This document shows, one piece after another, positions 2,535 to 38,100 of a DNA stretch of 64,000 bases. This DNA comes from Eubacteriales bacterium (GTDB lineage Bacteria > Bacillota > Clostridia > Oscillospirales > CAG-272), in NCBI GenBank assembly GCA_045613985.1, contig JAZLCA010000019.1:28345-92344 (forward strand), in the 5' to 3' direction. Each line of letters starts with the position of its first letter. The stretch's first letter is position 1. A program made the translations under genes and the position numbers. The notes under the pieces are model-generated. The model was not told the DNA's origin, ran no database searches, and worked only from the letters and a program-made list of their open reading frames with translations.

Positions 2535-2549
2535 GTTTATATCCTCACT

Positions 2550-3953: not shown

Positions 3954-3989
3954 TTCTGCCCTCCTTGGCGGACAAAAGTATACAGATAT

Positions 3990-4018
3990 ATTGTATCATA
4001 AAATTATTTTTCCGTCAA
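3990..4018 (-). promoter_or_regulatory. sigmaA promoter of rhaBAD
   Basis: TTGACG-17 bp-TACAAT with a TGn extension on the minus strand. Confidence 0.6.
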
Positions 4019-4063
4019 GTAAAAAATCGCAAAAAACACCTAACGAAGCACTCGAATGTGCCG

Positions 4064-4106
4064 TAAAAAAAGAATATGGAGGCATATTTTTCAATATGCC
4101 TCCATA
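4064..4106 (-). terminator. Intrinsic terminator after smpB
   Basis: 14-bp inverted repeat tatggaggcatatt / aatatgcctccata followed by a U tract on the minus strand. Confidence 0.85.
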
Positions 4107-4109
4107 CCG

Positions 4110-18160: not shown

Positions 18161-19804
18161 TCATTCGGTCCAAGCACCATACTTTGCCATGATAGCCTGA
18201 GCTATTCTCAATCCGTCAACTGCCGCGCTGGTAATACCTCCGGCATATCCCGCACCTTCGCCGCAGGGATAGACACACTCATGTCCTAAAGCAGTAAAAT
18301 TTTCTCCGCGCAAAATGCGAACGGGAGCGGACGTGCGGGTTTCAGGTGCGGTTAAAATTGCATCCGGAACGGCAAAGCCCGCGATTTTACGATCAAAAGA
18401 TGCAAGACCATAACGCAGAGATTGTATTACCCCCTGCGGCAATACGCGGCTCAAATTTGCGACGCGGACGTGCTCACCGTTTCTGTAGGTCGGTAAAACG
18501 CGGGATGGCTCGTGCTTAACCACATCTTGCATAAAGTCTCCGAGTGTCTGTATAGGTGCGCAGTAATTATTTCCACCGACAGCAAACGCCGCCTGTTCGA
18601 TGTTTCTTTGATAAGCAATCGCGCCAAGTGCGGCATTGCCATCGACAGTTCCATATTCGTGAGGATCCACCGATACAGCTACAGCACAGTTGGCATTTTT
18701 GCCATCGCGGGCGTGGTAACTCATACCGTTCACCACTACGCCCCCTTCCTCGGAGGCCGCCGCTACTACTTGTCCGCCCGGACACATGCAAAACGTATAA
18801 ACGCCGCGATCACCTTTCGTATCTGAAAGAGTATATTCTGCCGGTCCCAGAGCTGGATGACCTGCATATTTTCCGTACAGAGCACGATCGATATCCTCTT
18901 GCAGATGCTCAATACGAACTCCCACCGACATAGGCTTCGGTTCAATAGCAAATTGCTGCTCGATCAGCATACGATAAGTATCTCTCGCGCTGTGTCCCAA
19001 GGCCAAAACCAAGGCTCCGCAAACAAAATCGCCACGATTTGTTCTAACCGTTACGGTGCCGTCTCTGTTTTCCGTAAGCGCATCCATGCGAGTGCGATAG
19101 TGGACTTGTCCGCCGCACTCCTCGATACGAGCAAGGATACGATCAACCACGTTTCTTAACACATCGGTGCCGATATGGGGCTTGGCCTTTGTCAAAATAT
19201 CTTCCGGTGCGCCAAACTCGTGTAACCGTTCGAGAACATAACCGCAACGAGCATCGCTGATGCGAGTAACCAGTTTTCCATCGGAAAAGGTCCCTGCTCC
19301 GCCTGCACCGAATTGAACGTTACTGTCCGTATCAAGAATACCGTTATTGGAAAAATGCTCCACCGCGCGAACACGATCAGCAACACAATCTCCACGGTCA
19401 ATTAAAATAGGAGAATAACCGTTTTCTGCAAGCAACAGCGCGCAAAACAACCCTGCAGGTCCCATCCCGACGACCAAAGGGCGTTGCTTCATAAGGGCAG
19501 TTCCCTTGGTCAAATTGAGCATTTCTTTCTTGGATACACGAATTCCAGGCAGGTCGGAAATGCGGGCAACCAAGGCATCCGACAACGGCTCGGTTGGTTG
19601 GGCAAGCACCGTGCAGACCAATCGAACGGCATCTTGCTTGCGTGCGTCAACCGACTTTTTATACAAACGGAAATGAAGCGAGGAAACCGGAATACCGGCC
19701 CGCTTCATCACCCTTTTCGCTAGTTCTGTAATTTGATGCTCTGGGGCATCCGGCGACACACGAATGTCGCCGATCAGTATATTCAGCTGATGATCCATCG
19801 ACAT
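18161..19804 (-). CDS. FAD-dependent oxidoreductase (conserved uncharacterised family)
   Basis: VVGMGPAG Rossmann motif, GAGTFSDGKL, TFCMCPGG, ETRTSAP and GEGAGYAGGITSAAVDG. Confidence 0.88.
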   Translation of the reverse strand: MSMDHQLNILIGDIRVSPDAPEHQITELAKRVMKRAGIPVSSLHFRLYKKSVDARKQDAVRLVCTVLAQPTEPLSDALVARISDLPGIRVSKKEMLNLTKGTALMKQRPLVVGMGPAGLFCALLLAENGYSPILIDRGDCVADRVRAVEHFSNNGILDTDSNVQFGAGGAGTFSDGKLVTRISDARCGYVLERLHEFGAPEDILTKAKPHIGTDVLRNVVDRILARIEECGGQVHYRTRMDALTENRDGTVTVRTNRGDFVCGALVLALGHSARDTYRMLIEQQFAIEPKPMSVGVRIEHLQEDIDRALYGKYAGHPALGPAEYTLSDTKGDRGVYTFCMCPGGQVVAAASEEGGVVVNGMSYHARDGKNANCAVAVSVDPHEYGTVDGNAALGAIAYQRNIEQAAFAVGGNNYCAPIQTLGDFMQDVVKHEPSRVLPTYRNGEHVRVANLSRVLPQGVIQSLRYGLASFDRKIAGFAVPDAILTAPETRTSAPVRILRGENFTALGHECVYPCGEGAGYAGGITSAAVDGLRIAQAIMAKYGAWTE

Positions 19805-19837
19805 ATGCGTCCTCCGTCGAAGTTGTTTATTGCGAAG

Positions 19838-20050
19838 TTATCCAGCTTGCTCCTGCGCAGGCTTTTCCGGCTCCTGGTGATCCGGCAATTGGCTGCTTTG
19901 GTTGATGGCTCCTGAAATGAGCCAAATCAAAAATGCCAGCACTAAACTGACAAGCTTGAGTTTCCAGTAGCTGTGTCTCTTTTGTCTGTTGACGATCACC
20001 TCTTCGCGGTTGTGATCGACGTATAAAATTTCAAAATTGGTGTTTTTCAT
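19838..20050 (-). CDS. Small single-TM protein in the cdaR position (CdaR N-terminus-like, no YbbR domains)
   Basis: AAGGAGG RBS directly after the cdaA stop; KLVSLVLAFLIWL helix resembles the CdaR/YbbR TM segment; 70 aa. Confidence 0.55.
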   Translation of the reverse strand: MKNTNFEILYVDHNREEVIVNRQKRHSYWKLKLVSLVLAFLIWLISGAINQSSQLPDHQEPEKPAQEQAG

Positions 20051-20060
20051 GTTGGCCTCC

Positions 20061-20954
20061 TTACTTGTCCTCGTTTTCACGAGATTCAGCAGTAAAGCTG
20101 CGGTTTGTTTTTTTGCTTTCTTGCTCGGTAGCGCCGGTCAAAAGCAAAAACAAATCGTCTTTTAACGTACCGGAATTGTATCCGCGCTTCAAAATACCGT
20201 TATTGGCAATAGAAATAATACCGGTCTCTTCACTGACAACGATAACGACAGCATCACTCTGTTCGCTGATTCCTACCGCTGCGCGATGACGGGTCCCCAA
20301 TTCCTTGGGAAGCGCCGTACTCTTGGAAGAAGGCAAAATGCAGCCGGCCGCCGCAATCTTTCCGTCTCTTACAATAACGGCACCGTCGTGCAAAGGCGAA
20401 CGGTTGAAGAACAGGTTACCGAACAATTCGCAAGACATTTCTGCATTCAGTTCAATGCCTGTTTTGACATAGTCTCCAAGCTTGGTATTACGCTCAATGA
20501 CGATCAACGCGCCGCACTTTTCGCGGGCGAGATCAAACGCCGCATCTGAAAGAACGCCGATGGTTGCGGTGATATTAGCGACAGACTGATTGGGCGTTCC
20601 AAAATGTCTGAGTTGAAGAACAGACCCACCGATCTTTTCCAATGCATCACGGATCTCCCGCTGAAAAATGACGATAATAAATACGACATACATGCTAAAG
20701 AAGGCGCGCAACACCATATTCACCGTCCGCAAGCCCAACAGCTGCGTCAGTATGTAGAATCCGCCCAAGACAGCGAAGCCCACCAGCAGCGTCCACGCAC
20801 GGCGATCGCGCACAAAGCGGAGAATGTAGTAAATAATAACCGCCAGCAGCAAAATGTCAACGATGTCGCGCCAACCGATATTCCGTATCGGTTCCAATAT
20901 ACACGAAGAAAAAAATTCGCCTAGTTTATTCATAAAGGAGACTGCAAAGGTCAT
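20061..20954 (-). CDS. cdaA: Diadenylate cyclase CdaA
   Basis: Three N-terminal TM helices; FQREIR, SPLHDGA, GTRHRAA and VSEETG motifs. Confidence 0.95.
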   Translation of the reverse strand: MTFAVSFMNKLGEFFSSCILEPIRNIGWRDIVDILLLAVIIYYILRFVRDRRAWTLLVGFAVLGGFYILTQLLGLRTVNMVLRAFFSMYVVFIIVIFQREIRDALEKIGGSVLQLRHFGTPNQSVANITATIGVLSDAAFDLAREKCGALIVIERNTKLGDYVKTGIELNAEMSCELFGNLFFNRSPLHDGAVIVRDGKIAAAGCILPSSKSTALPKELGTRHRAAVGISEQSDAVVIVVSEETGIISIANNGILKRGYNSGTLKDDLFLLLTGATEQESKKTNRSFTAESRENEDK

Positions 20955-25148: not shown

Positions 25149-25177
25149 TTGACATCGTTTGTTGTTTATGCTATAAT
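25149..25177 (+). promoter_or_regulatory. sigmaA promoter of the T-box operon
   Basis: Consensus TTGACA-17 bp-TATAAT with a TGn extension. Confidence 0.85.
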
Positions 25178-25194
25178 ATCGGCATATTTCAAAT

Positions 25195-25478
25195 ACTGTG
25201 AAGGAATTACGTATGGCACGTCAGATGTTGCAGAGAGTTGACGGTTGGTGTAAGTCAACACATCGGTACCTATATGGTCTCATTCCTGAGTAGAGCTTCC
25301 GAACTTTGCACCTTTCGCATCATTAAGAAGCTCCGGCAGCCCCGTTACCATGGCTGACGGCTTTATACGAGCCGAACAAAGTGATCGCCCTATAGGCGAT
25401 AATTTCGTGGGTGGTACCGCGGCATTTACGTGTCGTCCCTGAAGCAGATGCTGTATCTGCGTCGGGGCGTTTTTTTAT
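25195..25478 (+). ncRNA. T-box riboswitch leader with a probable Leu (CUC) specifier
   Basis: AGAGA (25232) and GGTG-TAA (25247) stem I motifs; AGGAA/TTCCT base of stem I with CTC-A at 25279-25282; T-box GGGTGGTACCGCG at 25409-25421; terminator with a U tract at about 25434-25478. Confidence 0.9.
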
Positions 25479-25505
25479 TACATCATTTCTCGGAGGTAAC
25501 TATTT

Positions 25506-26912
25506 ATGAAGCAAATTTTCATCAACGATGCTACCCTGTGCGGTAAGCGTATGGCAACCATGAGTTTCCGCGAAAAGTTGGAAATTGCTAAACTACTTGA
25601 TAAAATGAAGGTGGATTGTATCGATTTCGGCACAATCCAAAATGAAAAAACGGATCCCCTACTTGTCTCTACCATTGCCCCCCTTCTTGCGCACAGCAAG
25701 CTCTGCATTTCCGTTGGGTTAGAGGAACACGACGTTGTTGTGGCCGGAAAGGCCCTTTCCAATCTCGCAGCTGCAAGACTTGCCGTCACTCTCCCCGTTT
25801 CTACCGTTGGTATGGAATATACCTGCCACAAAAAGCCAACGGCCGTATTGGAAGCAGTGATCGCACAGATTGCGCGCTGCAAACAATATGCTTGCGAGGT
25901 TGAACTTTGCGCGCTGGATGCTACTCGCAGCGAACCCGAATTTTTACGGCAATTGATTGTTGCTGCCATCGAGGCGGGCATCACTCATCTCACACTTTGC
26001 GACAACGCGGGCCGCACGCTTCCCGAAGAAGCTGCCGCATTTGTCGCTGATACGCTCAAAAATTTACCCGCTCTTGACGGATTGACCGTGTGTGTTTCTT
26101 TTCCCAACCGTATGCAACTGTCCGTCGCTTGTGCCACCGCCGCTTTACAGGCAGGCGCTGACGGCGTAAAGACCGGTGTCGGCTGTGATGATTACACTGA
26201 TGTCGCTCCTTTGTCCGAGATTTTACGCGACCGTGGGGAGACTTTGGGATTCTATTGCTCACTGAACATGACTGAGCTGCACCGTTGCATCCGTCAAATC
26301 GAAACCCTCACCCGTCCGACAGGCGAAATGGCAGGAGCTGCCACCACCGGACTGGCGGCAGATAACGAAATCCTTTCGCTGGATAAAAACGATGATTGCG
26401 TTTCTGTTGCCCGTGCCGTCCGCAAGCTCGGCTACGATCTGAATCCCGAGGATGAAGCACACGTTTATGAGGCATTTGTGCGGGTTGCAGAAAAAAAGGC
26501 CGTCAATGCCAGAGAACTTGAGGCTATCATTGCAAGTACCGCTTTGCAGGTCCCGCCCACTTATCGTTTGGTCAGCTATTTGACCAACAGCGGTAACATT
26601 ATCAGCTCTTCTGCTCACATTCAATTAGAAAAGAACGGACAAATGCTGGAAGGAATCACCATCGGTGACGGCCCCATTGATGCTGCTTTTATGGCCATTG
26701 AGCAGATCATCGGACACCATTACGATTTGGATGATTTCCAGATTCAGTCCGTCACCCAGGGACATGAGGCTATGGGTAACGCTCTGGTTCGTTTGCGTAA
26801 CGGCGGAAAGATTTACTCCGGTAATGGCATTTCCACCGATATCATCGGTGCAAGTATCCGTGCATATTTGAACGCTTTAAATAAGATTGTCTACGAGGAG
26901 GCTGCAGAATGA
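25506..26912 (+). CDS. 2-isopropylmalate synthase (LeuA) homolog with a degenerate active site and an intact C-terminal regulatory domain
   Basis: DRE-TIM-like N-terminus, but TLRDGEQ reads TLCGKRM and HxHND reads SFPNR; regulatory-domain motifs GDGPIDA and STDIIGASIRAYLNALN are conserved. Confidence 0.85.
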   Translation: MKQIFINDATLCGKRMATMSFREKLEIAKLLDKMKVDCIDFGTIQNEKTDPLLVSTIAPLLAHSKLCISVGLEEHDVVVAGKALSNLAAARLAVTLPVSTVGMEYTCHKKPTAVLEAVIAQIARCKQYACEVELCALDATRSEPEFLRQLIVAAIEAGITHLTLCDNAGRTLPEEAAAFVADTLKNLPALDGLTVCVSFPNRMQLSVACATAALQAGADGVKTGVGCDDYTDVAPLSEILRDRGETLGFYCSLNMTELHRCIRQIETLTRPTGEMAGAATTGLAADNEILSLDKNDDCVSVARAVRKLGYDLNPEDEAHVYEAFVRVAEKKAVNARELEAIIASTALQVPPTYRLVSYLTNSGNIISSSAHIQLEKNGQMLEGITIGDGPIDAAFMAIEQIIGHHYDLDDFQIQSVTQGHEAMGNALVRLRNGGKIYSGNGISTDIIGASIRAYLNALNKIVYEEAAE

Positions 26913-29401
26913 AACTCTCCTTTTCCACCAAAGGCTGGCAACAGCTTGGCTGGCAACGTTTATATGAATTGGCGCGCGACGTCAAGCTCTCCGGCATGGA
27001 AATACATAATCCGCTCGATCCCGTGATGAGAGATCGGGTACTGGATACCCAAAACGTGCCCCTTTCCCGCCGTCAGTTGCAGGAGGCGGGATTACAGATC
27101 GCCTGCGTGGATCTGCCCGTTGATCTGACGGACGAGAGCGATGATTTCCTCGCCAAATTAGATCGTGCCATCACGGCAGCTGTGAATATGAGAACCTCTC
27201 ATATCCGTATTCACACCATGGCTTCAAGCGAAAACGGCAAGGTTCCCGAGACGACCATGTCTCTGTTGGCTCTCGCCCTGGATAAGGCTGAAAAAGCCAA
27301 TGTTACACTGTTACTCGAAACCGCAGGTATGTTTTCTGACACAAACCTGCTCAAAAACACGCTCGATATCTTTGCCAGCGATTATCTGGCGGCTCTTTGG
27401 GATATGCATAACACCTACTTTCTGTCGGGGGAGACGGCACAAATCTCCATTGAACATTTAGGAGCTTACGTCAAGCACGTGCATATCAAGGACGCACAGC
27501 CTATGGGCGACGGGCACCAGTATTGCCTGATTGGAAGCGGTACACTTCCCATTGAGGATATGATGCGCGCCTTGCGTTCAGTCAATTATGACGGCTTTGT
27601 TTCATTGGAATGGAATCCCGATTGGTTGCCCGATATCGATGATCCCGAGATCATTTTTTCTCATTTCGTTCACGTCATGAGCCGCTTCGATCCCACATCA
27701 CGCAAAAAAAGCACGCTCTTTTCCAACGCAACCGGCACAGGCGTATTCCCTTGGAAAAAGGACACTCTTCTTGACTGTACGTTCGCCGAGGTGCTGGATC
27801 GAGTGGCAGAAGAATTTCCTGACCAGTATGCTTTTCGCTATACAACGTTGGACTACACCCGCACCTATGCACAATTCCGTGACGATGTGGATGATTTTGC
27901 CCGCGTTTTGATATCCATGGGAGTACGCGCAGGACAGAAAGTAACCGTGTGGCTGACAAACCTGCCTCAATGGTATATTGCCTTTTGGGCAACGACTAAA
28001 ATCGGCGCAATACTAGTCACCATGAACACAGCATATAAGATTCACGAAGCAGAATACCTGCTTCGTCAATCGGATACGCACACCCTCATTATGATCGAGG
28101 ATTACCGCGACTCCAATTACAAGGCCATTATGCAGGAGCTTTGCCCGGAGCTCAAAACTACTCGTCCCGGCCAGCCCTTACATGCCAAAAAACTTCCCTT
28201 CCTTCGCAATATCATTACGGTTGGTTTCCGCATGGATGGTTGCTTGACGTGGGAAGAAAGTTTGACGCGAAAGAACCTGATTCCCGTAGAAGAGGTTCAC
28301 CGCATGGCCGCGGCTGTTAACAAAAATGATGTCTGCAATATGCAGTATACGTCCGGTACGACAGGCTTTCCCAAGGGCGTTATGTTGACACACTATAATG
28401 TTGTCAACAACGGAAAATATATCGGAGATCATATGGATCTTTCCACGGCTGACCGCATGATGATCCAAGTCCCCATGTTCCATTGCTTCGGCATGGTACT
28501 TTCCATGACCGCTTCCATGACGCACGGCGCTACTATGTGCCCGCTTCCCTACTTTTCACCCAAATCGGCACTTGCCTGCATCAACCAGGAAAAGATCACT
28601 GCATTCAACGGCGTTCCTACCATGTTCATCGCCATGATGCAACACGCCGATTTCGCCAAAACCGATTTTTCTCACATCCGCACGGGCATTATGGCGGGTG
28701 CCAACTGTCCCGCTGATCTGATGAAAAAGGCCGCAGACGTTATGAACATGAAGCAGATTGTCAGCGTTTACGGTCAGACTGAGGCAGCCCCCGGCTGTAC
28801 CATGAGTAGCTTCACCGATCCGCTCGACGTTCGTACCGAAACGGTCGGCTCTGCTTTCGCCAACGTCGAGTGTAAAATCATTGATCCCGAAACCGGCGAG
28901 GAATGCCCCATTGGTGTCAACGGTGAATTCGTTGCCCGCGGTTACAATATTATGAAAGGCTATTACAAAATGCCTGCTGCCACAGCGGCCGCTATTGATG
29001 CAGATGGCTGGTTGCACACGGGCGACCTTGCCGCGAAAGATGAAAACGGCAACTATCGCATCACGGGAAGACTCAAGGACATGATTATCCGCGGCGGTGA
29101 AAACCTTTATCCCAAGGAAATCGAAGAGTTTTTCTACACGCACCCCAAGGTACGCGACGTTCAGGTGATCGGCGTGCCGGATGAACGCTACGGTGAAGAA
29201 GCCATGGCTTGCATCATCCTCAAGGAAGGAACCGAGGCCACCATCGAGGAGTTCCGCGATTATGCCAACGCGCATATGGCCCGCCACAAAGTTCCCCGCT
29301 ACCTTGAGTTTGTCCGTGAATTCCCCATGAACGCCGCGGGGAAAATTCTCAAATATAAAATGCGCGAGCAAGCGATCGAGCGGCTCGGGCTCAAAAAGTA
29401 A
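26909..29401 (+). CDS. Fusion of a xylose-isomerase-like (AP endonuclease 2) TIM barrel and an AMP-forming acyl-CoA ligase
   Basis: About aa 1-260: LLLET, WDMHN, HVHIKD and VSLEW; remainder: YTSGTTGFPKG, YGQTE, WLHTGD, DMIIRGGEN and GKILK; ATGA overlap with the upstream gene. Confidence 0.9.
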   Translation: MKLSFSTKGWQQLGWQRLYELARDVKLSGMEIHNPLDPVMRDRVLDTQNVPLSRRQLQEAGLQIACVDLPVDLTDESDDFLAKLDRAITAAVNMRTSHIRIHTMASSENGKVPETTMSLLALALDKAEKANVTLLLETAGMFSDTNLLKNTLDIFASDYLAALWDMHNTYFLSGETAQISIEHLGAYVKHVHIKDAQPMGDGHQYCLIGSGTLPIEDMMRALRSVNYDGFVSLEWNPDWLPDIDDPEIIFSHFVHVMSRFDPTSRKKSTLFSNATGTGVFPWKKDTLLDCTFAEVLDRVAEEFPDQYAFRYTTLDYTRTYAQFRDDVDDFARVLISMGVRAGQKVTVWLTNLPQWYIAFWATTKIGAILVTMNTAYKIHEAEYLLRQSDTHTLIMIEDYRDSNYKAIMQELCPELKTTRPGQPLHAKKLPFLRNIITVGFRMDGCLTWEESLTRKNLIPVEEVHRMAAAVNKNDVCNMQYTSGTTGFPKGVMLTHYNVVNNGKYIGDHMDLSTADRMMIQVPMFHCFGMVLSMTASMTHGATMCPLPYFSPKSALACINQEKITAFNGVPTMFIAMMQHADFAKTDFSHIRTGIMAGANCPADLMKKAADVMNMKQIVSVYGQTEAAPGCTMSSFTDPLDVRTETVGSAFANVECKIIDPETGEECPIGVNGEFVARGYNIMKGYYKMPAATAAAIDADGWLHTGDLAAKDENGNYRITGRLKDMIIRGGENLYPKEIEEFFYTHPKVRDVQVIGVPDERYGEEAMACIILKEGTEATIEEFRDYANAHMARHKVPRYLEFVREFPMNAAGKILKYKMREQAIERLGLKK

Positions 29402-29427: not shown

Positions 29428-30498
29428 ATGGAAATCAGAATTGAAAGAACAAGCACACCTGCAAATAAGCCGGACAGTTCCAAATTGGGCTTTGGCCGCT
29501 ATTTTACAGATCATATGTTTATCATGGATTATTCGCCCGACCAGGGGTGGCACGACGCTCGCATCGTTCCGTTTGGCAACCTTTCTCTTCATCCTGCCGC
29601 TACCGTTTTTCATTACGGCGCCGAAGTATTTGAGGGTATGAAGGCTTACCGTCGTGCGGACGGCGTTGTGCAGTTGTTCCGCCCGATGGAAAACGTCAAG
29701 CGCCTCAACTCCTCCGCAGAACGTCTGTGTCTGCCCGAAATTGACGAGCAGGATGCGCTGGATGCGATCATGAAGTTCGTTGAAGTCGAGCAGGATTGGG
29801 TCCCCTCCAATCCCGGTACCTCGCTGTATTTGCGTCCTTTCCTGTTTGGTTCGGACGAGCAGCTTGGTCTCCACACCATTCAAAATGCCATGTTTATCAT
29901 TATTGCCTCCCCTGTCGGCAGCTACTACGCTGCAGGCATCAACCCCGTTCGCATTATGATCGAAACCGAAGACGTTCGTGCCGTCAAGGGCGGTACGGGA
30001 TATACCAAGTGTGGCGGTAACTATGCAGCCAGCAACCGTGCGGCAGCTCGCGCAGAACAAAAAGGATATTCTCAGGTATTGTGGCTGGACGGTATCCACC
30101 GCAAGTATATCGAGGAAGTCGGTGCGATGAACGTTATGTTCCGCATCGGTGATGAGATCGTCACTCCTGAATTGTCCGGATCTATTTTGCCCGGTATTAC
30201 CCGTAAATCCTGTCTGGACGTCCTGCGCGCCGAAGGTTATAAGGTCAGCGAACGTAAAATCAGCGTAGATGAGCTTGTTGACGCTATGAAAAACGGAACG
30301 CTTAAAGAAGCTTGGGGTTGTGGTACCGCCGCTGTCGTATCTCCCATTGGAGAATTGGCCTTTGGCGATATGAAGTATACGGTAAACAACTTTGAGATTG
30401 GCGAGATCACACACCATCTGTACGACACACTGACCGGTATTCAGTGGGGTAAGGTATCCGACACCTACGGCTGGACAGTCGAAATTCCCGCAAACTAA
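29428..30498 (+). CDS. ilvE: Branched-chain amino acid aminotransferase
   Basis: FGRYFTDHM, HYG..VFEGMKAY, LYLRPF, KCGGNYA, EEVGAMN and ILPGITR motifs. Confidence 0.96.
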   Translation: MEIRIERTSTPANKPDSSKLGFGRYFTDHMFIMDYSPDQGWHDARIVPFGNLSLHPAATVFHYGAEVFEGMKAYRRADGVVQLFRPMENVKRLNSSAERLCLPEIDEQDALDAIMKFVEVEQDWVPSNPGTSLYLRPFLFGSDEQLGLHTIQNAMFIIIASPVGSYYAAGINPVRIMIETEDVRAVKGGTGYTKCGGNYAASNRAAARAEQKGYSQVLWLDGIHRKYIEEVGAMNVMFRIGDEIVTPELSGSILPGITRKSCLDVLRAEGYKVSERKISVDELVDAMKNGTLKEAWGCGTAAVVSPIGELAFGDMKYTVNNFEIGEITHHLYDTLTGIQWGKVSDTYGWTVEIPAN

Positions 30499-30507
30499 GG
30501 AGCTATC

Positions 30508-33500
30508 ATGTCTGAACACAAGCATTTTCCTATGGCGACCATGGATGGTAACGAAGCCGCCGCCTACGTTGCCTATGCTTTTACCGAGATCGCAGCCATC
30601 TATCCCATCACTCCCTCATCCCCCATGGCGGGCAAGACGGATGCATGGAGTGCGCACGGTAAGAAAAACTTATTTGGTCAGCCCGTAAGCCTGATTGAAA
30701 TGCAATCCGAGGCGGGCGCAGTAGCAGCCGTTCACGGCGCACTGGAAACGGGCGCTTTAGCAACCACCTTTACATCCTCACAGGGTCTGATGCTCATGAT
30801 TCCCGTCATGCACCGTATTTCGGGTGAGCGTCTTCCCGGTGTGCTTCACGTAGCGTCCCGTACTGTTGGAACCCACGCTCTGTCCATCTTCGGAGATCAC
30901 AGCGACGTAATGAATTGCCGCCAGACCGGTTTTGCCCTGCTCTCCACCGCGAGCGTTCAGGAGATCATGGATCTGGCTCCCGTGGCACATCTTTCGGCGA
31001 TCAAGGGGAGAATTCCCTTCCTTCATTTCTTCGACGGCTTGCGCACCTCGCACGAAATCAACAAGATCGAAACCATTCCTCACGAAGAAATGGGAAAGCT
31101 GTTGGATCGTGACGCGCTGGATGCCTTCCGCGCTCAAGCGCTCAATCCCGAGCATCCAAAACTGCGGGCAACCGTTCAAAACGGCGACGTTTATTTCCAG
31201 GTGCGCGAGGCTAACAACGGCTTCTACGATGCCCTGCCGGATATCGTCGAAAATTATATGAACGAAATTGCCACGCTGACCGGACGGAAATATCACCTTT
31301 TTGATTACTACGGTGATCCCGATGCGACCGATGTAGTTGTAGCTATGGGATCGGTCAGCGGTACCGTCCGTGAGGCCGTAGATGCGCTTCGCGCGAAGGG
31401 ACGCAAGGTTGGTTTTTTGCAGGTCCATCTGTTCCGTCCTTTCTCCATCAAGCATTTCGTATCCGCACTTCCGGCAAGCGTTCGCCGCATCGCGGTGTTG
31501 GATCGTTGCAAAGAGATGGGGGCTTTGGGCGAGCCCTTATATCAAGATGTTTGCACCGTCTTCTCGGGACGCTCAGACGTTACCGTCGTCGGCGGTCGTT
31601 ACGGCCTTTCCTCCAAGGATACCGATCCTTCCCAGATCGTTGCCGTATTCGATAACCTCGCCGCTGAGCATCCCAAAAATTCCTTTAGCATCGGCATCGT
31701 TGATGACGTGACCTTCCGTTCTCTGCCCATCGGTGCTCCCGTTGCGGAAAAGGCCGATACCTTCTCTTGCAAATTCTGGGGTCTGGGATCCGACGGTACG
31801 GTCGGTGCCAACAAAAACACGGTCGAGATCATCAACGATCATACCGATCGCTACGCACAGGCCTATTTTGAATACGATGCTAAAAAATCCTTTGGCGTCA
31901 CAAAATCTCACCTCCGCATCAGTCCAACTCCGATCACCTCTTCTTACTACGTCAAAAGTGCCGATCTGGTTGCTTGCCATCATCAAAGCTATGTTGGCAA
32001 ATACGACATGGTCAGCGAGCTCAAGCAAGGCGGTATCTTCCTTCTCAACTGCACTTGGGCTGCAAACGAGCTGGAGGAAAATTTGCCTGCCGACGTCCGT
32101 CGTACACTGGCGCAAAAAAATGCTCGCCTCTATCTAATCAATGCCAGCGAGATCGCTTCTCGCTTAGGACTTGGCTCGCACACCAACACCGTGCTTCAAG
32201 CCGCTTTCTTCCATATCGCCTCCATTCTGGATGAGCAAACCGTTATTGGATACATGAAGGACGCCGCTCGAAAGACCTATTTCGCCAAGGGTGATGCCGT
32301 TGTCGAGCGCAATTTGTCCGCCATTGATGCAGGTGTTGAGGGTGTATATCGTGTGGATATTCCCGCTCATTGGGCAAATGCGGCGGATACTCCCATCGCA
32401 ACAGACGAAATCAAGCCCGCCGTTGTACGTAATATTCTCGAGCCAATCAACGCGCAAAAGGGCGACGATCTGCCCGTCAGTGCCTTCCGCGGCTATGAGG
32501 ATGGTACCATTGACGTAGGTCTTACCGCTTATGAAAAGCGCAACATTGCAGCCAAGGTTCCCGTGTGGAACAGCACGGTCTGCTTACAGTGCAACCGATG
32601 CTCACTGGTCTGCCCCCACGCCGCCATCCGTCCGTATCTTCTGACGGAAGAAGAATTGTCCAACGCTCCCGAAGGACTGGTCGCTGTTGCTGCCAAGGGC
32701 GCTGCAGCCAAGGGCTACTATTACACGCTTCAAATCAGTACCGCAGATTGTACCGGATGTGGTAGCTGTGTGGCCTCTTGTCCGGCCAAGGACAAGGCGA
32801 TTGAGATGGTGGGTAACACCTTCCCCATTGCTTCTCCCGCTTGGGCATACACGTTAAGACTGGATGACAAGAACAACCTGTTCGACCGCTATACCGTCAA
32901 GGGTAGTCAGTTCTGCCGTCCGTTGCTTGAATTCTCTGCCGCCTGCGCAGGCTGCGGTGAAACCCCATACGCCAAGTTGCTCACTCAGTTGTTTGGTGAC
33001 CGCGTCTATTGGGCCAACGCCACCGGATGCTCCCAGGCTTGGGGTTCTCCCATGCCGGGTATTCCCTACACAACCAACAAGCAAGGCCACGGCCCTGCCT
33101 GGTCCAACTCGCTGTTTGAAAACAACGCTGAGTTCAGTTTGGGAATGTTTTTGTCCGTCCGTCAACAAAGAGAGGCACAGAAAATGCGTGTGGAACAGCT
33201 GATGGCTATAGCCGACGGAGCGGTGCGCGAAAATACGAAGGCTTGGCTGGATGGCTTTGATAATTACGAGGCCTCTCCCGCTCTGACCGAAGACTTGTGT
33301 AACGTTCTGCAAGAGGCTCGTCCCACGATGACTGCTGAACAGGCCACACTTGCCGCTGACATTCTCCGTTACCGCGACCAGCTGACCAAAAAGTGCTTTT
33401 GGATGTTCGGCGGCGACGGCTGGGCGTACGATATCGGCTTTGGCGGTTTGGATCACGTGGTGGCAAGCGGCGAGGACGTCAATATGTTCATCGTCGATAC

Positions 33501-34017
33501 CGAAGTGTATTCCAACACGGGCGGTCAGTCTTCCAAGGCAACCCCGATCGGTGCAGTCGCTCAGTTTGCCAACTCGGGTAAAAAGACACTCAAGAAGGAT
33601 CTTGGCGCTATGCTCATGACCTACGGCAACGTATACGTTGCGCAGGTCGCTATGGGTGCCGATCCCAACCAGCTGATGAAGGCACTCAAAGAAGCCGCCT
33701 CCTATCCCGGTCCTTCTGTCATCATCGCCTATACGCCCTGTACCGCTCACGGCATCAAGGGCGGTATGAGTGGTGTTCAGGCCGAGATGAAGCGCGCCGT
33801 GGATGCCGGCTACTGGCACTTGTACCGCTACGATCCCAGAAAAGATCAGCCCTTCGTCCTGGATAGCGGCGAAGCTACCCTGTCCTACCGTGACTTTCTG
33901 GACGGCGAAGTTCGTTACAGCGCACTCATCCGCACCTTCCCCAACGAGGCCGCCACGCTGTTTGAGCAAGGCGCCGAAGCGGCGAAGAAGAAGTATGAAA
34001 ATTATAAGAAAATGTAA
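30508..34017 (+). CDS. Single-chain pyruvate/2-oxoacid:ferredoxin oxidoreductase (NifJ/PFOR family)
   Basis: YPITPSS, MQSEAGA, GSDGTVGANK, two CxxCxxCxxxCP motifs, ACAGCGE, GGDGWAYDIG and YSNTGGQ. Confidence 0.93.
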   Translation: MSEHKHFPMATMDGNEAAAYVAYAFTEIAAIYPITPSSPMAGKTDAWSAHGKKNLFGQPVSLIEMQSEAGAVAAVHGALETGALATTFTSSQGLMLMIPVMHRISGERLPGVLHVASRTVGTHALSIFGDHSDVMNCRQTGFALLSTASVQEIMDLAPVAHLSAIKGRIPFLHFFDGLRTSHEINKIETIPHEEMGKLLDRDALDAFRAQALNPEHPKLRATVQNGDVYFQVREANNGFYDALPDIVENYMNEIATLTGRKYHLFDYYGDPDATDVVVAMGSVSGTVREAVDALRAKGRKVGFLQVHLFRPFSIKHFVSALPASVRRIAVLDRCKEMGALGEPLYQDVCTVFSGRSDVTVVGGRYGLSSKDTDPSQIVAVFDNLAAEHPKNSFSIGIVDDVTFRSLPIGAPVAEKADTFSCKFWGLGSDGTVGANKNTVEIINDHTDRYAQAYFEYDAKKSFGVTKSHLRISPTPITSSYYVKSADLVACHHQSYVGKYDMVSELKQGGIFLLNCTWAANELEENLPADVRRTLAQKNARLYLINASEIASRLGLGSHTNTVLQAAFFHIASILDEQTVIGYMKDAARKTYFAKGDAVVERNLSAIDAGVEGVYRVDIPAHWANAADTPIATDEIKPAVVRNILEPINAQKGDDLPVSAFRGYEDGTIDVGLTAYEKRNIAAKVPVWNSTVCLQCNRCSLVCPHAAIRPYLLTEEELSNAPEGLVAVAAKGAAAKGYYYTLQISTADCTGCGSCVASCPAKDKAIEMVGNTFPIASPAWAYTLRLDDKNNLFDRYTVKGSQFCRPLLEFSAACAGCGETPYAKLLTQLFGDRVYWANATGCSQAWGSPMPGIPYTTNKQGHGPAWSNSLFENNAEFSLGMFLSVRQQREAQKMRVEQLMAIADGAVRENTKAWLDGFDNYEASPALTEDLCNVLQEARPTMTAEQATLAADILRYRDQLTKKCFWMFGGDGWAYDIGFGGLDHVVASGEDVNMFIVDTEVYSNTGGQSSKATPIGAVAQFANSGKKTLKKDLGAMLMTYGNVYVAQVAMGADPNQLMKALKEAASYPGPSVIIAYTPCTAHGIKGGMSGVQAEMKRAVDAGYWHLYRYDPRKDQPFVLDSGEATLSYRDFLDGEVRYSALIRTFPNEAATLFEQGAEAAKKKYENYKKM

Positions 34018-34042
34018 CGAAACCGATTTTTAACATAAAGTT

Positions 34043-34080
34043 AGCCTCCGCCAAGGTTTTCCCTTGACGGAGGCTGTTTT
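34043..34080. terminator. Intrinsic terminator ending the T-box operon
   Basis: agcctccg-ccaagg...ccttg-acggaggct hairpin followed by gtttt. Confidence 0.8.
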
Positions 34081-34090
34081 ACTTTCAAAC

Positions 34091-34936
34091 TTACCCTTCT
34101 GTCTTCGCCAACCAATCGGCAACGACGAAGTCCTGTAGCTTGCGCAACGTGACGGGATCTTGGCCGCCGACCGAAGCGCCATCAAGTTCACACACCGACA
34201 GACACAGCGAGCCCGCGCTGGAGACGATGATCTCGTCCGCGTCGCGCAGCTCCTGCATAGTGAAAATACGCTCCTCGACCGGAATACCGAGCGTCTTACT
34301 CGCCGCGATCAGGTGAGCGCGACCGATGCCGGGAAGAATATATTCGTCCGCCGGTGGCGTAATGAAAACGCCATTTTTGAGAATGGACACGTTGGAATGC
34401 GAGCATTCGGTCACGCGGTCGCCGCGGTGCATGACCGTCTCGTCCACGCCTGCTTTGTTGGCCATCTCGGCCGTCAGTACACTGGGCAAAAGATTGAGCG
34501 TTTTAATGTTGCAATACAGATATCTTCTGTCCTCGGCACTGATCAGGCGAATGGGGCGATAGACCGGCTTGATCTTCACGGGGCGTAGCATGATCATGAG
34601 ATTGGATTTAGGCTGTCCTGCAGGAAAGACGTGATCTCTCAAGGCACTGCCTCGCGTTACTTGCCAATAAACGAACTGCTCACCATCGTCTACGCGGCGT
34701 ACGAGATCGATCAAAAGTGCACGTAATTCTTCGGCAGGCATCGGCTCCGCAATCTCCAGGCGCTTCAGATTGACGTAAAAGCGCGCGATATGCTCATCAA
34801 GCGCATAGATAACGTGATTTCTCGAGTAAGCGGCATCATAAATGCCATCTCCAAAATAAAGACCGCGGTCCGTCATAGGAACCTTCATCTCCTCAATAGA
34901 CCCGATCTCTCCGTTGTAGTATCCTAAATTAAGCAT
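34091..34936 (-). CDS. Class IV aminotransferase, D-amino acid aminotransferase-like
   Basis: DRGLYFGDGIY, YWQVTRG, RDHVFP, IKTLNLL and ILPGI motifs. Confidence 0.85.
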   Translation of the reverse strand: MLNLGYYNGEIGSIEEMKVPMTDRGLYFGDGIYDAAYSRNHVIYALDEHIARFYVNLKRLEIAEPMPAEELRALLIDLVRRVDDGEQFVYWQVTRGSALRDHVFPAGQPKSNLMIMLRPVKIKPVYRPIRLISAEDRRYLYCNIKTLNLLPSVLTAEMANKAGVDETVMHRGDRVTECSHSNVSILKNGVFITPPADEYILPGIGRAHLIAASKTLGIPVEERIFTMQELRDADEIIVSSAGSLCLSVCELDGASVGGQDPVTLRKLQDFVVADWLAKTEG

Positions 34937-35140
34937 ATATGTATCTCCTCGCCAAAAAGGATTTTACTCATTCTTTAACATTATATCATGGATCGGCACA
35001 AGTTGCAACCACATTACGAAAATTTATTTCAGCAATTAAAAATATTTATCTGGAAATAACGATCGTTTCTCATAAAACATTTCCGTTCGACGAATCAAGA
35101 AAAAACATATGGCATTTTTCACAAAAAGTTGAGTAACACC

Positions 35141-35169
35141 TTTACATATTTATTAAAATATGTTAGAAT
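35141..35169 (+). promoter_or_regulatory. Probable sigmaA promoter of the 1119-aa lipoprotein
   Basis: TTTACA-17 bp-TAGAAT with TGn. Confidence 0.5.
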
Positions 35170-35199
35170 GAATCATTAAAAATATGTTGGAGGTTTTGT

Positions 35200-38100
35200 A
35201 TGATACATCCCGCCAAAACGTCACGTTTCAGACGCTTCTGCCGATATCTTGCTTTCATATTGGCACTTCTTATGGTTCCAACGGCACTTATCTCCTGCCA
35301 GACGCCCTCGGATACGCCACCACCGGACGATATTCCCCCTACCGATGACGGCACGAACGACACGCCCTCGGACAAGCTGCCAGAAGAAGAGGATCCCGGA
35401 ACGAAGCCGCCGGAAGATGATCCTCCCAAGGAAGATGATCCTCCCAAGGAAGACGAGCCATATGTTCCGAACGAAGCGCCCCTGATACGCGAGGAAGGTG
35501 GACTATATCTCTATTCTTCCGGAACATATCTGTGCAATTCCGCCAATCAGGACAAGGAATTTCTTTTCCGTCAGTTCGGAAACGCGTTGGACTATTGCCG
35601 CTTTGCCGACGGATATTCTACCATTGTATATCGCTTCAATATTCACGATAAATATGAGCCTTTGCTCGAGTTCACTATTGGTAACGATTACAAGATCGAA
35701 ATTTCAACCGACGGAAAAAGCTGGACCAAAGTATATAACTGGCTGGACGAGCATCCTACCTGCCGCGACCGCAGTAACCAAGCAGTATTTACCATCAATC
35801 CCTACGATTTTGAGGTGTACGATATGTGCTACATCCGTTTCTCCGACCCTTCCACGTCGGACGGATGCGGACCTTGTCTAACACAACTTACATTTTCTTA
35901 CTACGAGGACAGTAAAATGGAAGACTTGAACATTTTTGATTTGAATGAAAACATGTACGACATCTTGGATGATCTCAATTACACTACCGAAGATCCCTCG
36001 ACTGTTGACACCTATGCCATCGCCTCCGACGGCGGTCTCATTTACAATCCCATTTCGCGTGAAAAAGCAGAAGAGCTGACCAAATACGATGCAGCCGAAT
36101 GCTACACCGGAAGCATCAAAAAGACGGTCAGCGGCATCGAATATACCCTCACCTATAAAATCCCCAAGCAGGCGACCGCTTACGATGCATTGCCGATTTG
36201 GTATGAAATCACCTCCTCCAAAAATTCTTCTGCCATCGTCTACGTTAATGCAACTGCATTTGAGGACAAAGAGCGCGAGGGCGGAAACCTTTACTATGAC
36301 CTGACGCTTCCTGGCACGGTCGATATTACTTGGGATTATCTGGGATACGTCGGCGGTATGGATAGGCTGAGTAACCGCGCACAGGTCACCGGTGATTTTG
36401 AAAAGGATAAGCTTGGCAAACAATATCCCCAGTACAATGCTACTGACGTTATCTTATCCGGCAATGTCAAATCATCTTCTATCTTATGGTGGAAGTTCCG
36501 TTATACCAATACGGGTAATACGGTGCTGGACGGCGACGGCAACGGCACCTTCTGCTTCGAAGGCTTTTTGTATCGTAAAAACGGCGACAACTGGGAAAAG
36601 TACGCCAAGATGGAAAACAACTACAACCGTATCATCGATGAGGTCTATCCCGGTGAAAGCGGCGAGATGTACTTCATTTTTGACGGCACCTACAATCTCC
36701 AACCCGGCGAATACAAGATTGTCATCAACAGTCTGGTACGCAACGAGACCTCCAATCCCGAAAATTACTTCACCAAGATTTGGGGCGGTGCTACCGCTTC
36801 GCAATCCGAGTTTACCTTTACCGTCAGCAACAGCGACGATATTACCTCTCCTGCCGCTGTCAAAAAATCTGCTCCTGCGTCTACGGTCCGCAACCGATGG
36901 TTGCACACCTATGAAGAGTTCATGACCAGCTTCGACAGCTATCTGAGAGGTATCACCGGCAAAAAGGTGACGGGCACCATGTATCTGCAGTGTGCTCCCT
37001 GGACCAATCAGGTCGTTCTTCGCCTGATCGTAGGTGACGGTGACACGATGGAGGCTGTTTCCATTCCCATCCAGATTGAGACCGACTCGATCAAAATCCA
37101 ATTCAACCCCGACAACAACAATTACGTTGTGCTGGAAGACGGCACACGCTTCCCCGCCATTACGGCGCAGTCCATGGCGGATATGCGCGGTAACGTCCAA
37201 CTCGGCCCGGATGCTGCCTTTAACGTCATCGATAATCTCCTGGCCATGCAGGAGATTGGCATCAACGTCATCAACACCACGGCCGCATTCGAATTTGATG
37301 CCTCTTTTGGCAAGAACCGTGCCAACAACATCGACGCCTGCTGGTTCTCTTTGGACGTCGCCCGCATTTTGGGTATCAAGCTGCAGGGCTGGATCTGCTA
37401 TCCCTATGAGTCGACAAACTCGCTGAATCAGGCCAACAAGCTGTTCGGCACCAAGTTTGCCGAAACGGGCTTTGGATCCAAGGATCTGGCAGAAGCCAAC
37501 GGCATGAATGCCGTTTGGCAGTATGAGCGCTGGGGCGACAACTACTGGATCGGCGGCGATGACACGGTGCTGCTTGATATTGAGGATACCCGCGGTTGGA
37601 TGCGCGTTGATTTCAACGCCCGTTATCGCATCGATGCATCTTCCAAGCAGTATTTCAGATTCTTCCTGATGGATCTGTATGGCAGTGACATTGATGAGCT
37701 TAACGATGATTGGGGTACGGAATACGAATCCTTTGAAGAGATTGATCCCGAGATTGGAACAGCAGACGACCACGGCTGGGCAAGCTACAAGGTTGACGGT
37801 ATCGTTTTTGAAGAATGGAGTCGTCCCCTTGAGGTACTGGATATGTTCCGTACGCTGGAGCGTATTCAGGACTATCAGAGAATACTGGAAGTAGCCAAGG
37901 AAACCATTCCCACCGGCAAGATCAGCCTGAGAACGGAAGGTGCCAACTGGCTGGCCACCGTTGATCCCTCTACTACCAATCCCCACCTGCGCCACGTATA
38001 TTACAGCCAGCGTCGCTGTGGTATTATTCCCGAATTGATGGCAGAGTCGGAGATTCTGTACGCCGCTTCGGACTACACCACACTTCCCTACACTCCCAGC

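Follow-up and report, generated by a model that had tools for sequence, protein, structure and literature searches.

Introduction

HisZ is a catalytically dead paralogue of histidyl-tRNA synthetase that acts as the regulatory subunit of the short-form ATP phosphoribosyltransferase HisG, and both the complex and the inhibition by histidine have been shown experimentally. It has been known since the 1960s that Clostridia of the rumen and gut, cellulolytic ones among them, require branched-chain volatile fatty acids and build leucine from isovalerate. The carboxylation of isovalerate as a pathway to leucine in rumen bacteria was described by Allison and co-workers in that decade, as cited in PMC7356843. 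Outside the subscription journals, our searches of the literature turned up neither an assignment of genes, T-box control, or a LeuA-like component to this route nor any account of a LeuA that has lost catalysis or of the operon presented below.

The described proteins with which the present one is best compared are the bacterial LeuAs (TIGR00973/NF002086; structures 3rmj, 3eeg, 1sr9, and 3fig), and a Leu T-box is also found upstream of some leuA genes, as reported in PMC2494555. Plant methylthioalkylmalate synthase (6e1j) is a LeuA descendant with a function that was likewise changed at the level of domains; there it is the regulatory domain that is gone and catalysis that remains. As to ligases, PMC10026030 and PMC11167679 describe MbcS of Staphylococcus aureus, a CoA synthetase for branched-chain carboxylic acids. 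Here we describe a LeuA-like protein, which we call pseudo-LeuA, encoded in a 64,000-nt stretch of DNA (the window) from a Eubacteriales bacterium, together with its operon and its relatives in other genomes.

Results and Discussion

The pseudo-LeuA gene (25506..26912, plus strand) encodes 468 aa, and its open reading frame, profile matches, and AlphaFold2 model support a product with the two-domain architecture and fold of LeuA. Residues 1–270 (25506–26315) make up a degenerate DRE-TIM barrel, of which residues 17–225 match HMGL-like in Pfam (PF00682, 87.7 bits); residues 271–330 are a linker from which subdomain I is deleted; and residues 331–468 (26496–26909) are the LeuA regulatory domain, matched by LeuA_dimer at residues 333–461 (PF08502, 106.6 bits, 129 of 131 profile positions). 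In the NCBIfam profile search no enzyme family model reached its cut-off with pseudo-LeuA, the top LeuA equivalog being NF002086 at 258.9 bits against a cut-off of 532 and TIGR00973 giving 222.3 bits against 598.7, which places the protein at about half of every curated LeuA cut-off. The model has a mean pLDDT of 84.7, with values above 90 across most of the barrel. Its best Foldseek matches are full-length Mycobacterium tuberculosis LeuA, including the leucine-bound form 3fig (E ∼1e-23), and the modelled barrel aligns to 3eeg with a TM score of 0.93 and an rmsd of 1.8 Å. The plant methylthioalkylmalate synthase matches the barrel structurally as well, although in what was kept and what was lost pseudo-LeuA is its mirror image.

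An earlier sequence-only reading of this gene had described an uninterrupted frame, a retained C-terminal LeuA allosteric domain, and replacement of all DRE-TIM signatures. The first two are borne out by the open frame and by the PF08502 match, along with the motifs GDGPIDA, STDIIGAS, and AYLNALNK, which are also found in real LeuAs; in the alignment, GDGPxDAxF, SVTEG, GxSTDI, and AYxNAxNK are common to the real and the pseudo proteins. Following the LeuA literature, we take these motifs to be the leucine site. As for the signatures, each replacement is seen when pseudo-LeuA is aligned to the solved LeuAs 3rmj, 3eeg, and 3ewb and to five real LeuAs from the same bacterial order: TLRDGEQ has become TLCGKRM, HCHND has become SFPNR, and GIGERAGN has become GCDDYTD. 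At the level of residues, the metal-binding Asp of RDGxQ is replaced by Gly and its Arg by Cys, the two His residues of HxH are replaced by Ser and Pro, respectively, and GERAGN reads DDYTD. We note a further loss that the earlier reading did not contain, a 29-residue deletion in subdomain I that removes HESGIH of the HxSGIHQ motif. All four catalytic motifs are intact in the five real LeuAs of the order. With the metal ligands, the substrate residues, and subdomain I gone, pseudo-LeuA should no longer make isopropylmalate, as had been proposed. Judged from these positions, it is unable to bind the catalytic metal or to run the Claisen condensation, and we have high confidence that it is a non-catalytic LeuA paralogue. 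LeuA-like matches of 312–355 bits, which we considered as evolutionary intermediates, were rejected as such; they are ordinary LeuAs with all motifs.

Within the pseudo-LeuA family, the metal-ligand positions vary, as do those where HxH and GERxGN once stood, so no new active site has arisen in their place. The barrel residues that are conserved group at the C-terminal ends of strands 1, 2, 4, 5, and 6, the usual ligand face, and N46, K48, D50, E104, K110, D138, R141, and D166 are invariant or nearly so; this cluster could serve to bind a ligand or a partner and have nothing to do with the sensing of leucine. Taken with the purifying selection on the barrel described below, such a pattern might suggest that the barrel serves as a carrier or channel for a bound acyl-CoA or 2-oxo acid, or that it catalyses a reaction that needs no metal. 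Against this, all known metal and 2-oxo acid residues are lost, no family of enzymes claims the protein at its model's cut-off, and D138, R141, and D166 are conserved in real LeuAs too and may therefore be structural; we regard a new ligand or reaction of this kind as improbable.

The identical catalytic losses recur throughout the family, which comprises at least 120 protein clusters, so the feature is not due to chance. The family is large and intact and is found in Oscillospirales-like MAGs from gut and rumen. Homologues that evolve neutrally or carry frameshifts, which the earlier reading had named as evidence that would count against it, are not what the family contains. Across the window and 80 related loci, 76 of 76 full-length ORFs are intact, at 43–52% identity to the window's protein, and the comparison of dN/dS per domain that had been proposed gives purifying selection in both domains, with values of 0.058–0.161 for the barrel and 0.010–0.071 for the regulatory domain in 11 close pairs (dN < 0.15; most pairs at dS 0.1–1.5 were near saturation and were set aside). 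Relative to real LeuAs, the constraint on the two domains is inverted. Mean identity within the pseudo family is 37.7% for the barrel and 68.0% for the regulatory domain (41.5% and 70.7% over 76 sequences), whereas the real LeuAs of the order have 55.8% and 50.7%, the regulatory domain being the more conserved part in the former and the less conserved part in the latter.

Upstream of pseudo-LeuA and on the same plus strand, a sigma-70-type promoter (25149..25177; TTGACA, a 17-nt spacer, and TATAAT with a TG extension, 12 of 12 consensus matches) ends 12 nt before the start of a T-box leader (25189..25443; Rfam RF00230, 99.1 bits against a gathering score of 93). The cmscan alignment places the specifier codon CUC (Leu) at 25279–25281. 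The T-box core GGGTGGTACCGCG lies at about 25409–25421, and a probable terminator hairpin followed by a T run, which was recognized by eye from the sequence and is missing from the output of a simple terminator scan, lies at 25432..25477. All 16 leaders in the alignment read CUC in the specifier column, and the Rfam-aligned leaders of related loci likewise carry CUC (10 of 10). A T-box is found directly 5′ of pseudo-LeuA in 55 of the 71 loci with enough upstream DNA, with CUC in 52 and CUG in 3. Pseudo-LeuA is the first gene of an operon that is turned on by uncharged tRNA-Leu through the CUC T-box. The signals for translation are as the sequence-only reading had given them: GGAGG (25492–25496) precedes the pseudo-LeuA ATG by 9 nt, and the pseudo-LeuA stop overlaps the ligase start in ATGA (26909–26912). 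The ligase has its own ribosome-binding site, GAGGAGG (26895–26901), inside the last pseudo-LeuA codons.

Using tblastn with the order's own LeuC, LeuD, and LeuB together with TIGR02083, we found no leuB, leuC, or leuD in the genome that contains the window, which is 99.5% complete and has ilvBNCD. TIGR00170 is unsuited to leuC here, since the order has the TIGR02083 type and 0 of 151 genomes matched TIGR00170. Both leuB and leuC occur in 82 of the 151 genomes of the order; they are missing from 32 of the 33 sampled genomes with pseudo-LeuA and present in 81 of the 118 others. A LeuA-like gene on contig C54 was considered as a hidden real leuA and set aside, as it has no regulatory-domain match and lies beside genes for aconitate hydratase (983.7 bits) and NADP-isocitrate dehydrogenase (654.9 bits). 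A citrate-synthase-type enzyme, presumably the Re-citrate synthase, is its more likely product.

The absence of the canonical pathway from 32 of 33 genomes, together with a ligase ribosome-binding site in the last pseudo-LeuA codons and a stop that overlaps the ligase start, would fit a functionless leuA relic that is kept merely because translation of the ligase needs an upstream frame. This is contradicted already by the selection data, with purifying selection acting at the amino acid level along the whole length (dN/dS 0.01–0.16) and every one of the 76 ORFs intact at 43–52% identity to the window's protein. In the one sampled pseudo-LeuA genome that has leuB/leuC (G091), the gene coexists with the full pathway, so pseudo-LeuA is more than a leftover from loss of the pathway, and this genome suggests that the paralogue arose before leuBCD disappeared. 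We consider it extremely improbable that the gene is without function. A leucine-related role is supported by the Leu T-box, the absence of leuB/leuC, and the conservation of the regulatory domain.

The gene that overlaps pseudo-LeuA (26909..29401, plus strand) encodes an 830-aa fusion of a xylose-isomerase-like TIM barrel (residues 1–285, 26909–27763; AP_endonuc_2, 81.3 bits in Pfam) and an AMP-forming acyl-CoA ligase (residues 286–830; AMP-binding, 310.2 bits, and AMP-binding_C, 63 bits). In carrying this TIM barrel and in belonging to another subfamily (NF009233, on which it scores 673.9 bits, under the cut-off of 832), this TIM-ligase differs from MbcS, and no near solved homologue with a matching substrate was found for it. 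Where leuA might be expected with leuBCD, pseudo-LeuA is linked to an acyl-CoA ligase instead. The close linkage of the two genes, from whose overlap the earlier reading had suggested translational coupling, extends across species: the TIM-ligase gene lies directly 3′ of pseudo-LeuA in 75 of 80 related loci, the remaining five of which end within 600 nt, and at most 12 nt separate the two genes in 51 of 60 related loci, with 16 overlapping, counts that are approximate because alignment was used to set the starts. The TIM-ligase is present in each of the 33 sampled genomes with pseudo-LeuA. The converse does not hold: of the 55 sampled genomes that have a full-length TIM-ligase, 22 are without pseudo-LeuA (9 of the 22 are also without leuB), and in these the ligase is a solitary gene preceded by a Leu T-box of its own. 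This weakens the case for a strict partnership, and the idea that the ligase barrel exists to dock pseudo-LeuA was rejected as a general rule. The stand-alone TIM-ligases keep the metal-ligand motifs of the barrel, and these canonical motifs are degraded in the barrels of the ligases associated with pseudo-LeuA; a FastTree of the ligases covered 32 of the 63 associated sequences and 8 of the 12 that stand alone. A search for fusions of pseudo-LeuA to the ligase, as proteins of at least 820 aa with the regulatory domain, found none, which is weak evidence. Prediction of a complex between ligase residues 1–285 and full pseudo-LeuA, with 47-row alignments, gave a median score of 0.35, with one control at 0.26, values that we count neither for nor against binding.

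The degraded metal motifs also fit a structural role for both barrels, in which pseudo-LeuA would be a scaffold or assembly factor that senses nothing and holds the ligase, perhaps with the oxidoreductase and aminotransferase described below, in an oligomer or metabolon. The coupling of the genes is strict, the two TIM barrels evolve at similar rates (41.5% mean identity and dN/dS of about 0.06–0.16 for pseudo-LeuA; 45% and about 0.04–0.13 in close pairs for the ligase), and the deletion of subdomain I should bare a face of the pseudo-LeuA barrel. However, the strongest constraint falls on the regulatory domain and not on the barrel, that domain keeps motifs of feedback-regulated LeuAs that mere dimerisation would not need, and the stand-alone TIM-ligases do without pseudo-LeuA. 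A pure scaffold is therefore unlikely in our view.

Two further enzymes follow on the plus strand: a branched-chain amino acid aminotransferase of IlvE type II (BCAT; 29428..30498; NF009897, 477.7 bits against 307), which is the sole tblastn match to its own sequence in the genome, and a single-chain pyruvate/2-oxoacid:ferredoxin oxidoreductase of NifJ type (PFOR; 30508..34017; TIGR02176, 1698.1 bits against 911), of which a 52%-identical paralogue is found on contig C64. A class-IV aminotransferase at 34091–34936 scored as a D-amino-acid transaminase. The window operon thus holds together the three enzyme types needed for carboxylation of isovalerate, namely, an acyl-CoA ligase, a 2-oxoacid:ferredoxin oxidoreductase, and BCAT, and its hosts are rumen and gut Clostridia without leuB/leuC. 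Elsewhere BCAT and PFOR vary in position and presence, with BCAT in 30 of the 80 related loci and PFOR after the ligase in 5; loci L021 and L074 have VorB (549 bits against 399) together with the beta and gamma subunits.

PFOR or VorABC and BCAT being frequent neighbours, a leucine-binding pseudo-LeuA might act, in place of the ligase, on the oxidoreductase, on the aminotransferase, or on some target beyond the operon. The conservation of the regulatory domain and the Leu T-box context would fit this equally well, and so would the TIM-ligases that occur without pseudo-LeuA. The ligase gene alone, however, is an invariable neighbour (in 75 of 80 loci) that usually overlaps pseudo-LeuA, in contrast to the shifting BCAT and PFOR, and we hold a target other than the ligase to be distinctly unlikely.

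Many of the loci carry a second ligase under a Leu T-box beside VorABC and BCAT. Neighbouring ligases in the related loci fit the MbcS model best (about 410–445 bits, below the cut-off of 850), carry HTH and cupin domains, and have T-box specifiers for Leu, Val, or Ile, namely, CUC (20), GUA (5), AUC (3), and GUC (2). Their likeness to MbcS supports branched short-chain acids as the substrates in such clusters. Because a second, MbcS-like ligase stands beside VorABC/BCAT, the TIM-ligase may not be the isovalerate ligase in those loci.

Proposed Role of Pseudo-LeuA

We are confident that the operon serves leucine supply, and it probably does so by making leucine from isovalerate, the substrate of the ligase being suggested by the specificity of the T-box and by context. 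The acyl-CoA ligase would activate isovalerate to isovaleryl-CoA, the oxidoreductase would reductively carboxylate this to 2-ketoisocaproate, and BCAT would transaminate 2-ketoisocaproate to leucine. In a genome without leuB, leuC, and leuD, this route (or uptake) would be the only source of leucine. Pseudo-LeuA would contribute its TIM-barrel fold and, above all, a leucine-binding regulatory domain; from its sequence we lean toward the view that it binds leucine, which would sit in the regulatory-domain dimer. It would then relay end-product inhibition to the ligase, which is the first committed enzyme and the product of the overlapping gene. That pseudo-LeuA is a regulatory subunit of the ligase, with which it would be in contact and which it would inhibit, is a tentative suggestion. 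Since the T-box already provides leucine-dependent expression, a second layer of control is not demanded by logic. Our preferred reading as a whole, in which a non-catalytic LeuA paralogue acts as a leucine sensor that inhibits the ligase of an isovalerate-to-leucine route, has somewhat less than even odds of being correct.

The proposed logic is that of HisZ, in that the pseudoenzyme descends from a protein with a site for the end product and serves the first enzyme of the pathway. The differences are that the parent of pseudo-LeuA is a synthase and not a synthetase, that its putative partner is an acyl-CoA ligase, and that contact and inhibition are in its case putative as well.

Conclusions

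The locus and its relatives provide a testable set of genes, comprising a ligase, an oxidoreductase, and an aminotransferase, with each ligase behind an amino-acid-specific T-box and with a conserved LeuA pseudoenzyme as an unexpected extra component. Some sources call proteins of the pseudo-LeuA family "2-isopropylmalate synthase", a label that would wrongly predict leucine prototrophy by the canonical pathway. Should pseudo-LeuA sense leucine, the finding would bear on pseudoenzyme evolution, annotation, rumen nutrition, and metabolic models of the microbiome. It is conceivable, at a lower level of confidence than the role proposed above, that a dead LeuA was recruited as a leucine-sensing allosteric subunit of the ligase and marks the isovalerate-pathway genes within a wider system of T-boxes and branched-chain fatty acid ligases. 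If this is true, pseudo-LeuA would represent a new HisZ-like class of pseudoenzyme regulator, and the long-sought genes of isovalerate carboxylation would be marked, with each branched-chain fatty acid ligase under its own Val-, Ile-, or Leu-T-box. Leucine made from fermentation acids in Clostridia that lack leuBCD would then be under two layers of end-product control, one of RNA and one of protein. If leucine is indeed sensed, an allosteric domain would have outlived its own enzyme and been re-used on a non-homologous pathway to the same product.

Loss of the Active Site and Retention of the Regulatory Domain

The pseudo-LeuA gene (25506..26912, +) is uninterrupted and has a ribosome-binding site, as the sequence-only reading had stated; it encodes 468 aa, and the site is GGAGG, 9 nt 5' of the start. 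By Pfam, residues 17-225 match an HMGL-like TIM barrel (87.7 bits) and residues 333-461 the LeuA allosteric/dimerisation domain (106.6 bits, 129 of 131 profile positions). No curated LeuA model is reached, with all scores at about half of the cut-off (best, NF002086, 258.9 bits vs 532; TIGR00973, 222.3 bits vs 598.7). The protein was aligned with the solved LeuAs 3rmj, 3eeg, and 3ewb and with five bona fide LeuAs from its own bacterial order. All three motif replacements claimed earlier recur in these alignments: TTLRDGEQ has become ATLCGKRM, the metal-binding HCHND has become SFPNR, and GIGERAGN has become GCDDYTD. A 29-residue deletion additionally takes out the HESGIH motif of subdomain I, and none of the metal ligands Asp, His, His is left. 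Judged from the alignments, the catalytic residues have been lost. The C-terminal domain is retained, again as claimed, and has the GDGPxDAxF, SVTEG, GxSTDI, and AYxNAxNK motifs in common with real LeuAs. The GxGP loop is where feedback-resistant LeuA mutations lie. An AlphaFold2 model (mean pLDDT 84.7, poor only at 272-288 and 417-420) is closest in fold to full-length M. tuberculosis LeuA, the leucine-bound entry 3fig among the matches, and superposition of its barrel on 3eeg gives an rmsd of 1.8 Å.

At least 120 clusters of relatives (439-519 aa, 48-83% identity) came up in a protein search. The family is already in databases under generic names, "hypothetical protein" or [quoted passage not shown], or as "2-isopropylmalate synthase", which is wrong. 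In a 38-member alignment there is almost no variation over the last 140 residues. The positions that were once catalytic do vary, and hence no new residue constellation stands in place of the old active site; that the protein has taken on a new ligand-binding function seems improbable to us.

We compared the window with 80 loci from species-representative rumen and gut MAGs (Oscillospiraceae, Acutalibacteraceae, and Ruminococcus). All 76 full-length copies are intact, and five more are truncated at contig ends. Pairwise identity averages 41.5% for the barrel, 40% for the linker, and 70.7% for the regulatory domain. Genuine LeuAs of the order show the reverse constraint (barrel 55.8%, regulatory domain 50.7%, vs 37.7% and 68.0% for six pseudo-LeuAs in the same alignment). 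The per-domain dN/dS that had been proposed as a check was calculated from 11 pairs with dN < 0.15, most other pairs being near synonymous saturation, and indicates purifying selection on both the barrel (0.058-0.161) and the regulatory domain (0.010-0.071). By these sequence comparisons pseudo-LeuA is a conserved family and not a decaying gene, and we give almost no credence to the view that it is a relic.

A Leucine T-Box Operon and Its Relatives

The window has a perfect promoter (25149-25177) and, after it, a T-box leader (25189-25443, 99.1 bits vs a gathering score of 93) whose specifier codon at 25279-25281 is CUC (Leu). Pseudo-LeuA is the first of four genes with no gaps of note. It is followed by the 830-aa TIM-ligase (26909..29401), a xylose-isomerase-like TIM barrel fused to an AMP-forming acyl-CoA ligase, then by a type II branched-chain aminotransferase (BCAT; 477.7 bits, cut-off 307) and a single-chain pyruvate/2-oxoacid:ferredoxin oxidoreductase (PFOR; 1698 bits, cut-off 911). 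The reported overlap of the pseudo-LeuA stop with the ligase start is indeed present (ATGA, 26909-26912), and the GAGGAGG site of the ligase lies within the final pseudo-LeuA codons. Upstream and divergent are argG, argH, argF, and cdaA. Convergent to the operon end is a class-IV aminotransferase (34091-34936, -) that scores as a D-amino-acid transaminase at ∼210 bits, below cut-offs, and further downstream is a 1119-aa protein (35200-38559, +) with weak Big_14 and F5/8-type-C matches.

The TIM-ligase gene lies immediately 3' of pseudo-LeuA in 75 of the 80 loci, and the remaining five end within 600 nt. The distance is approximately 12 nt or less in 51 of 60 loci, with 16 overlaps. Such an arrangement would also suit a scaffold, a role that we consider unlikely though the strongest of the alternatives. 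A strict T-box core motif occurs 77-185 nt 5' of pseudo-LeuA in 53/80 loci. Of 20 short loci, 10 have a T-box by Rfam, in each case with CUC, and five of the ten misses have <230 nt of upstream DNA. With a stem-I HMM, 55 of 71 loci with >330 nt upstream carry a T-box directly 5' of pseudo-LeuA (52 CUC, 3 CUG); in several of the other 16, pseudo-LeuA sits deeper within a longer cluster.

BCAT is present in 30/80 loci and PFOR in 5/80. VorB, with beta and gamma subunits alongside, occurs in L021 and L074 (549 and 545 bits, cut-off 399). The neighbors also include one or two acyl-CoA synthetases of the MbcS-like type, with HTH_3 and Cupin_2 domains fused at the N terminus (L021:2533-4830; L072:14086-16455 and 18178-20559; L030:14328-16598). 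The 37 T-boxes 5' of MbcS-like ligases read CUC (20), GUA (5), AUC (3), GUC (2), CUA (1), and UUC (1), with five unreadable; except for the single UUC, all readable specifiers are branched-chain amino acid codons. They are an amino-acid-specific switch for each ligase, the pattern expected if each ligase channels one branched-chain fatty acid to one amino acid.

Other genes also recur in these clusters. An Amidohydro_2 gene directly follows the TIM-ligase at L021:13389-14237 and L068:13875-14726 (282-283 aa, 129.6 and 146.7 bits), and a 43% identical homologue lies elsewhere in the window's own genome, on C44. Several clusters have a small CbiA/ParA-like P-loop protein between an MbcS-like ligase and VorB (L021:4842-5507, L074:15020-15715, L030:16870-17526), possibly an Fe-S or assembly factor that serves the oxidoreductase. 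Between two T-box-controlled ligases, L072:16498-17934 encodes an ACT domain and metallo-beta-lactamase fold protein, possibly a further amino-acid sensor.

Absence of the Canonical Leucine Pathway

Profile searches of the window's own assembly (2.17 Mb, 99.5% complete) gave no LeuA at or above cut-off and only 33.6 bits for leuB. LeuC in this order is of the TIGR02083 type, and TIGR00170 matched none in 151 of its genomes; the search was therefore made by tblastn with LeuC, LeuD, and LeuB sequences from the order itself. The sole match was a cluster on C54 (∼32760-37840; L003, L005, L006), which encodes aconitate hydratase (983.7 bits) and NADP-isocitrate dehydrogenase (654.9 bits). Its third gene encodes a 481-aa LeuA/homocitrate-synthase-like protein in which no regulatory domain is matched, probably a Re-type citrate synthase, and the three together would probably form the oxidative branch to 2-oxoglutarate. 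With ilvB, ilvN, ilvC, and ilvD on C7 and the leu genes missing, the organism can make 2-ketoisovalerate but not turn it into leucine by the usual route. The genome has no VorB and a second PFOR paralogue. On C33 (∼2057-4113), an AMP-forming ligase precedes a 369-aa 2-oxoacid oxidoreductase alpha-like subunit, and the two may be a further pair for acid-to-2-oxoacid carboxylation, serving a different amino acid.

Among the 151 genomes (each at least 90% complete), pseudo-LeuA occurs in 33, distributed across a dozen families (≥499 bits, full length, free of stops), and leuB and leuC (TIGR02083) co-occur in the same 82. These two genes are found in 1/33 pseudo-LeuA genomes vs 81/118 others, the genomes being related and the counts not independent. 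The one exception, G091, carries a full salvage cluster at L093 (G091:C2:44000-59000) with OFOR subunits, BCAT, pseudo-LeuA, and TIM-ligase. The pseudo-LeuA of this genome, in which the RDGEQ Arg and the first HxH His persist, may be an early-branching form and suggests that the paralogue arose before the canonical pathway was gone.

TIM-Ligases without Pseudo-LeuA

Full-length TIM-ligase is present in 55/151 genomes, namely, all 33 with pseudo-LeuA and 22 without (leuB in 13, none in 9); a 56th copy (G098) is cut by a contig end. At 12 such stand-alone loci (L099-L110), in genomes often having leuB and leuC, BCAT, VOR, and pseudo-LeuA are all absent within 6 kb. A Leu T-box precedes the stand-alone gene in 5/9 loci by Rfam and 8/12 by the stem-I HMM, all CUC. 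In a FastTree phylogeny built from 32 of the 63 associated TIM-ligases and 8 of the 12 stand-alone ones, the latter form a single clade (support 100). The canonical E / WDxHH / HxKD / LEW metal-ligand motifs of the xylose-isomerase-like barrel are intact in all eight and degraded in several associated enzymes. From the stand-alone occurrence, T-boxes, clade, and barrel motifs, it follows that the leucine-controlled TIM-ligase is the older unit and that pseudo-LeuA came in as an accessory to one branch, which is nearly confined to genomes without leuBCD. At L102:8116-11252 (G077), a genuine leuA and a citramalate-synthase-like (cimA) gene lie directly 5' of the promoter and Leu T-box that serve a stand-alone TIM-ligase, an adjacency that could resemble the ancestral arrangement. 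The stand-alone enzymes limit the idea of a ligase/pseudo-LeuA partnership. A leucine sensor acting on another target would fit them, a reading that we hold doubtful and slightly less likely than a scaffold.

Proposed Role of Pseudo-LeuA

An isovalerate carboxylation route to leucine has been described for rumen bacteria (PMC7356843), and the operon enzymes fit it. In this operon, induced by uncharged tRNA-Leu, the ligase would convert isovalerate, its likely substrate, to isovaleryl-CoA; reductive carboxylation to 2-ketoisocaproate by PFOR here, and by VorABC elsewhere, would be followed by transamination by BCAT. A search of full-text literature, with most subscription journals outside its reach, brought up no paper dealing with a catalytically dead LeuA, with this operon, or with genes of the isovalerate route, and "CoA" appears nowhere in a T-box survey (PMC2494555). 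Pseudo-LeuA is a pseudoenzyme that belongs to the LeuA family, and we propose for it a role that by analogy would be like that of HisZ. Leucine would bind in its regulatory-domain dimer, and through contact with the ligase the committed step would be restrained. Fast protein-level feedback would thereby be added to slow RNA-level control, and this would be most important where the route is the sole one to leucine.
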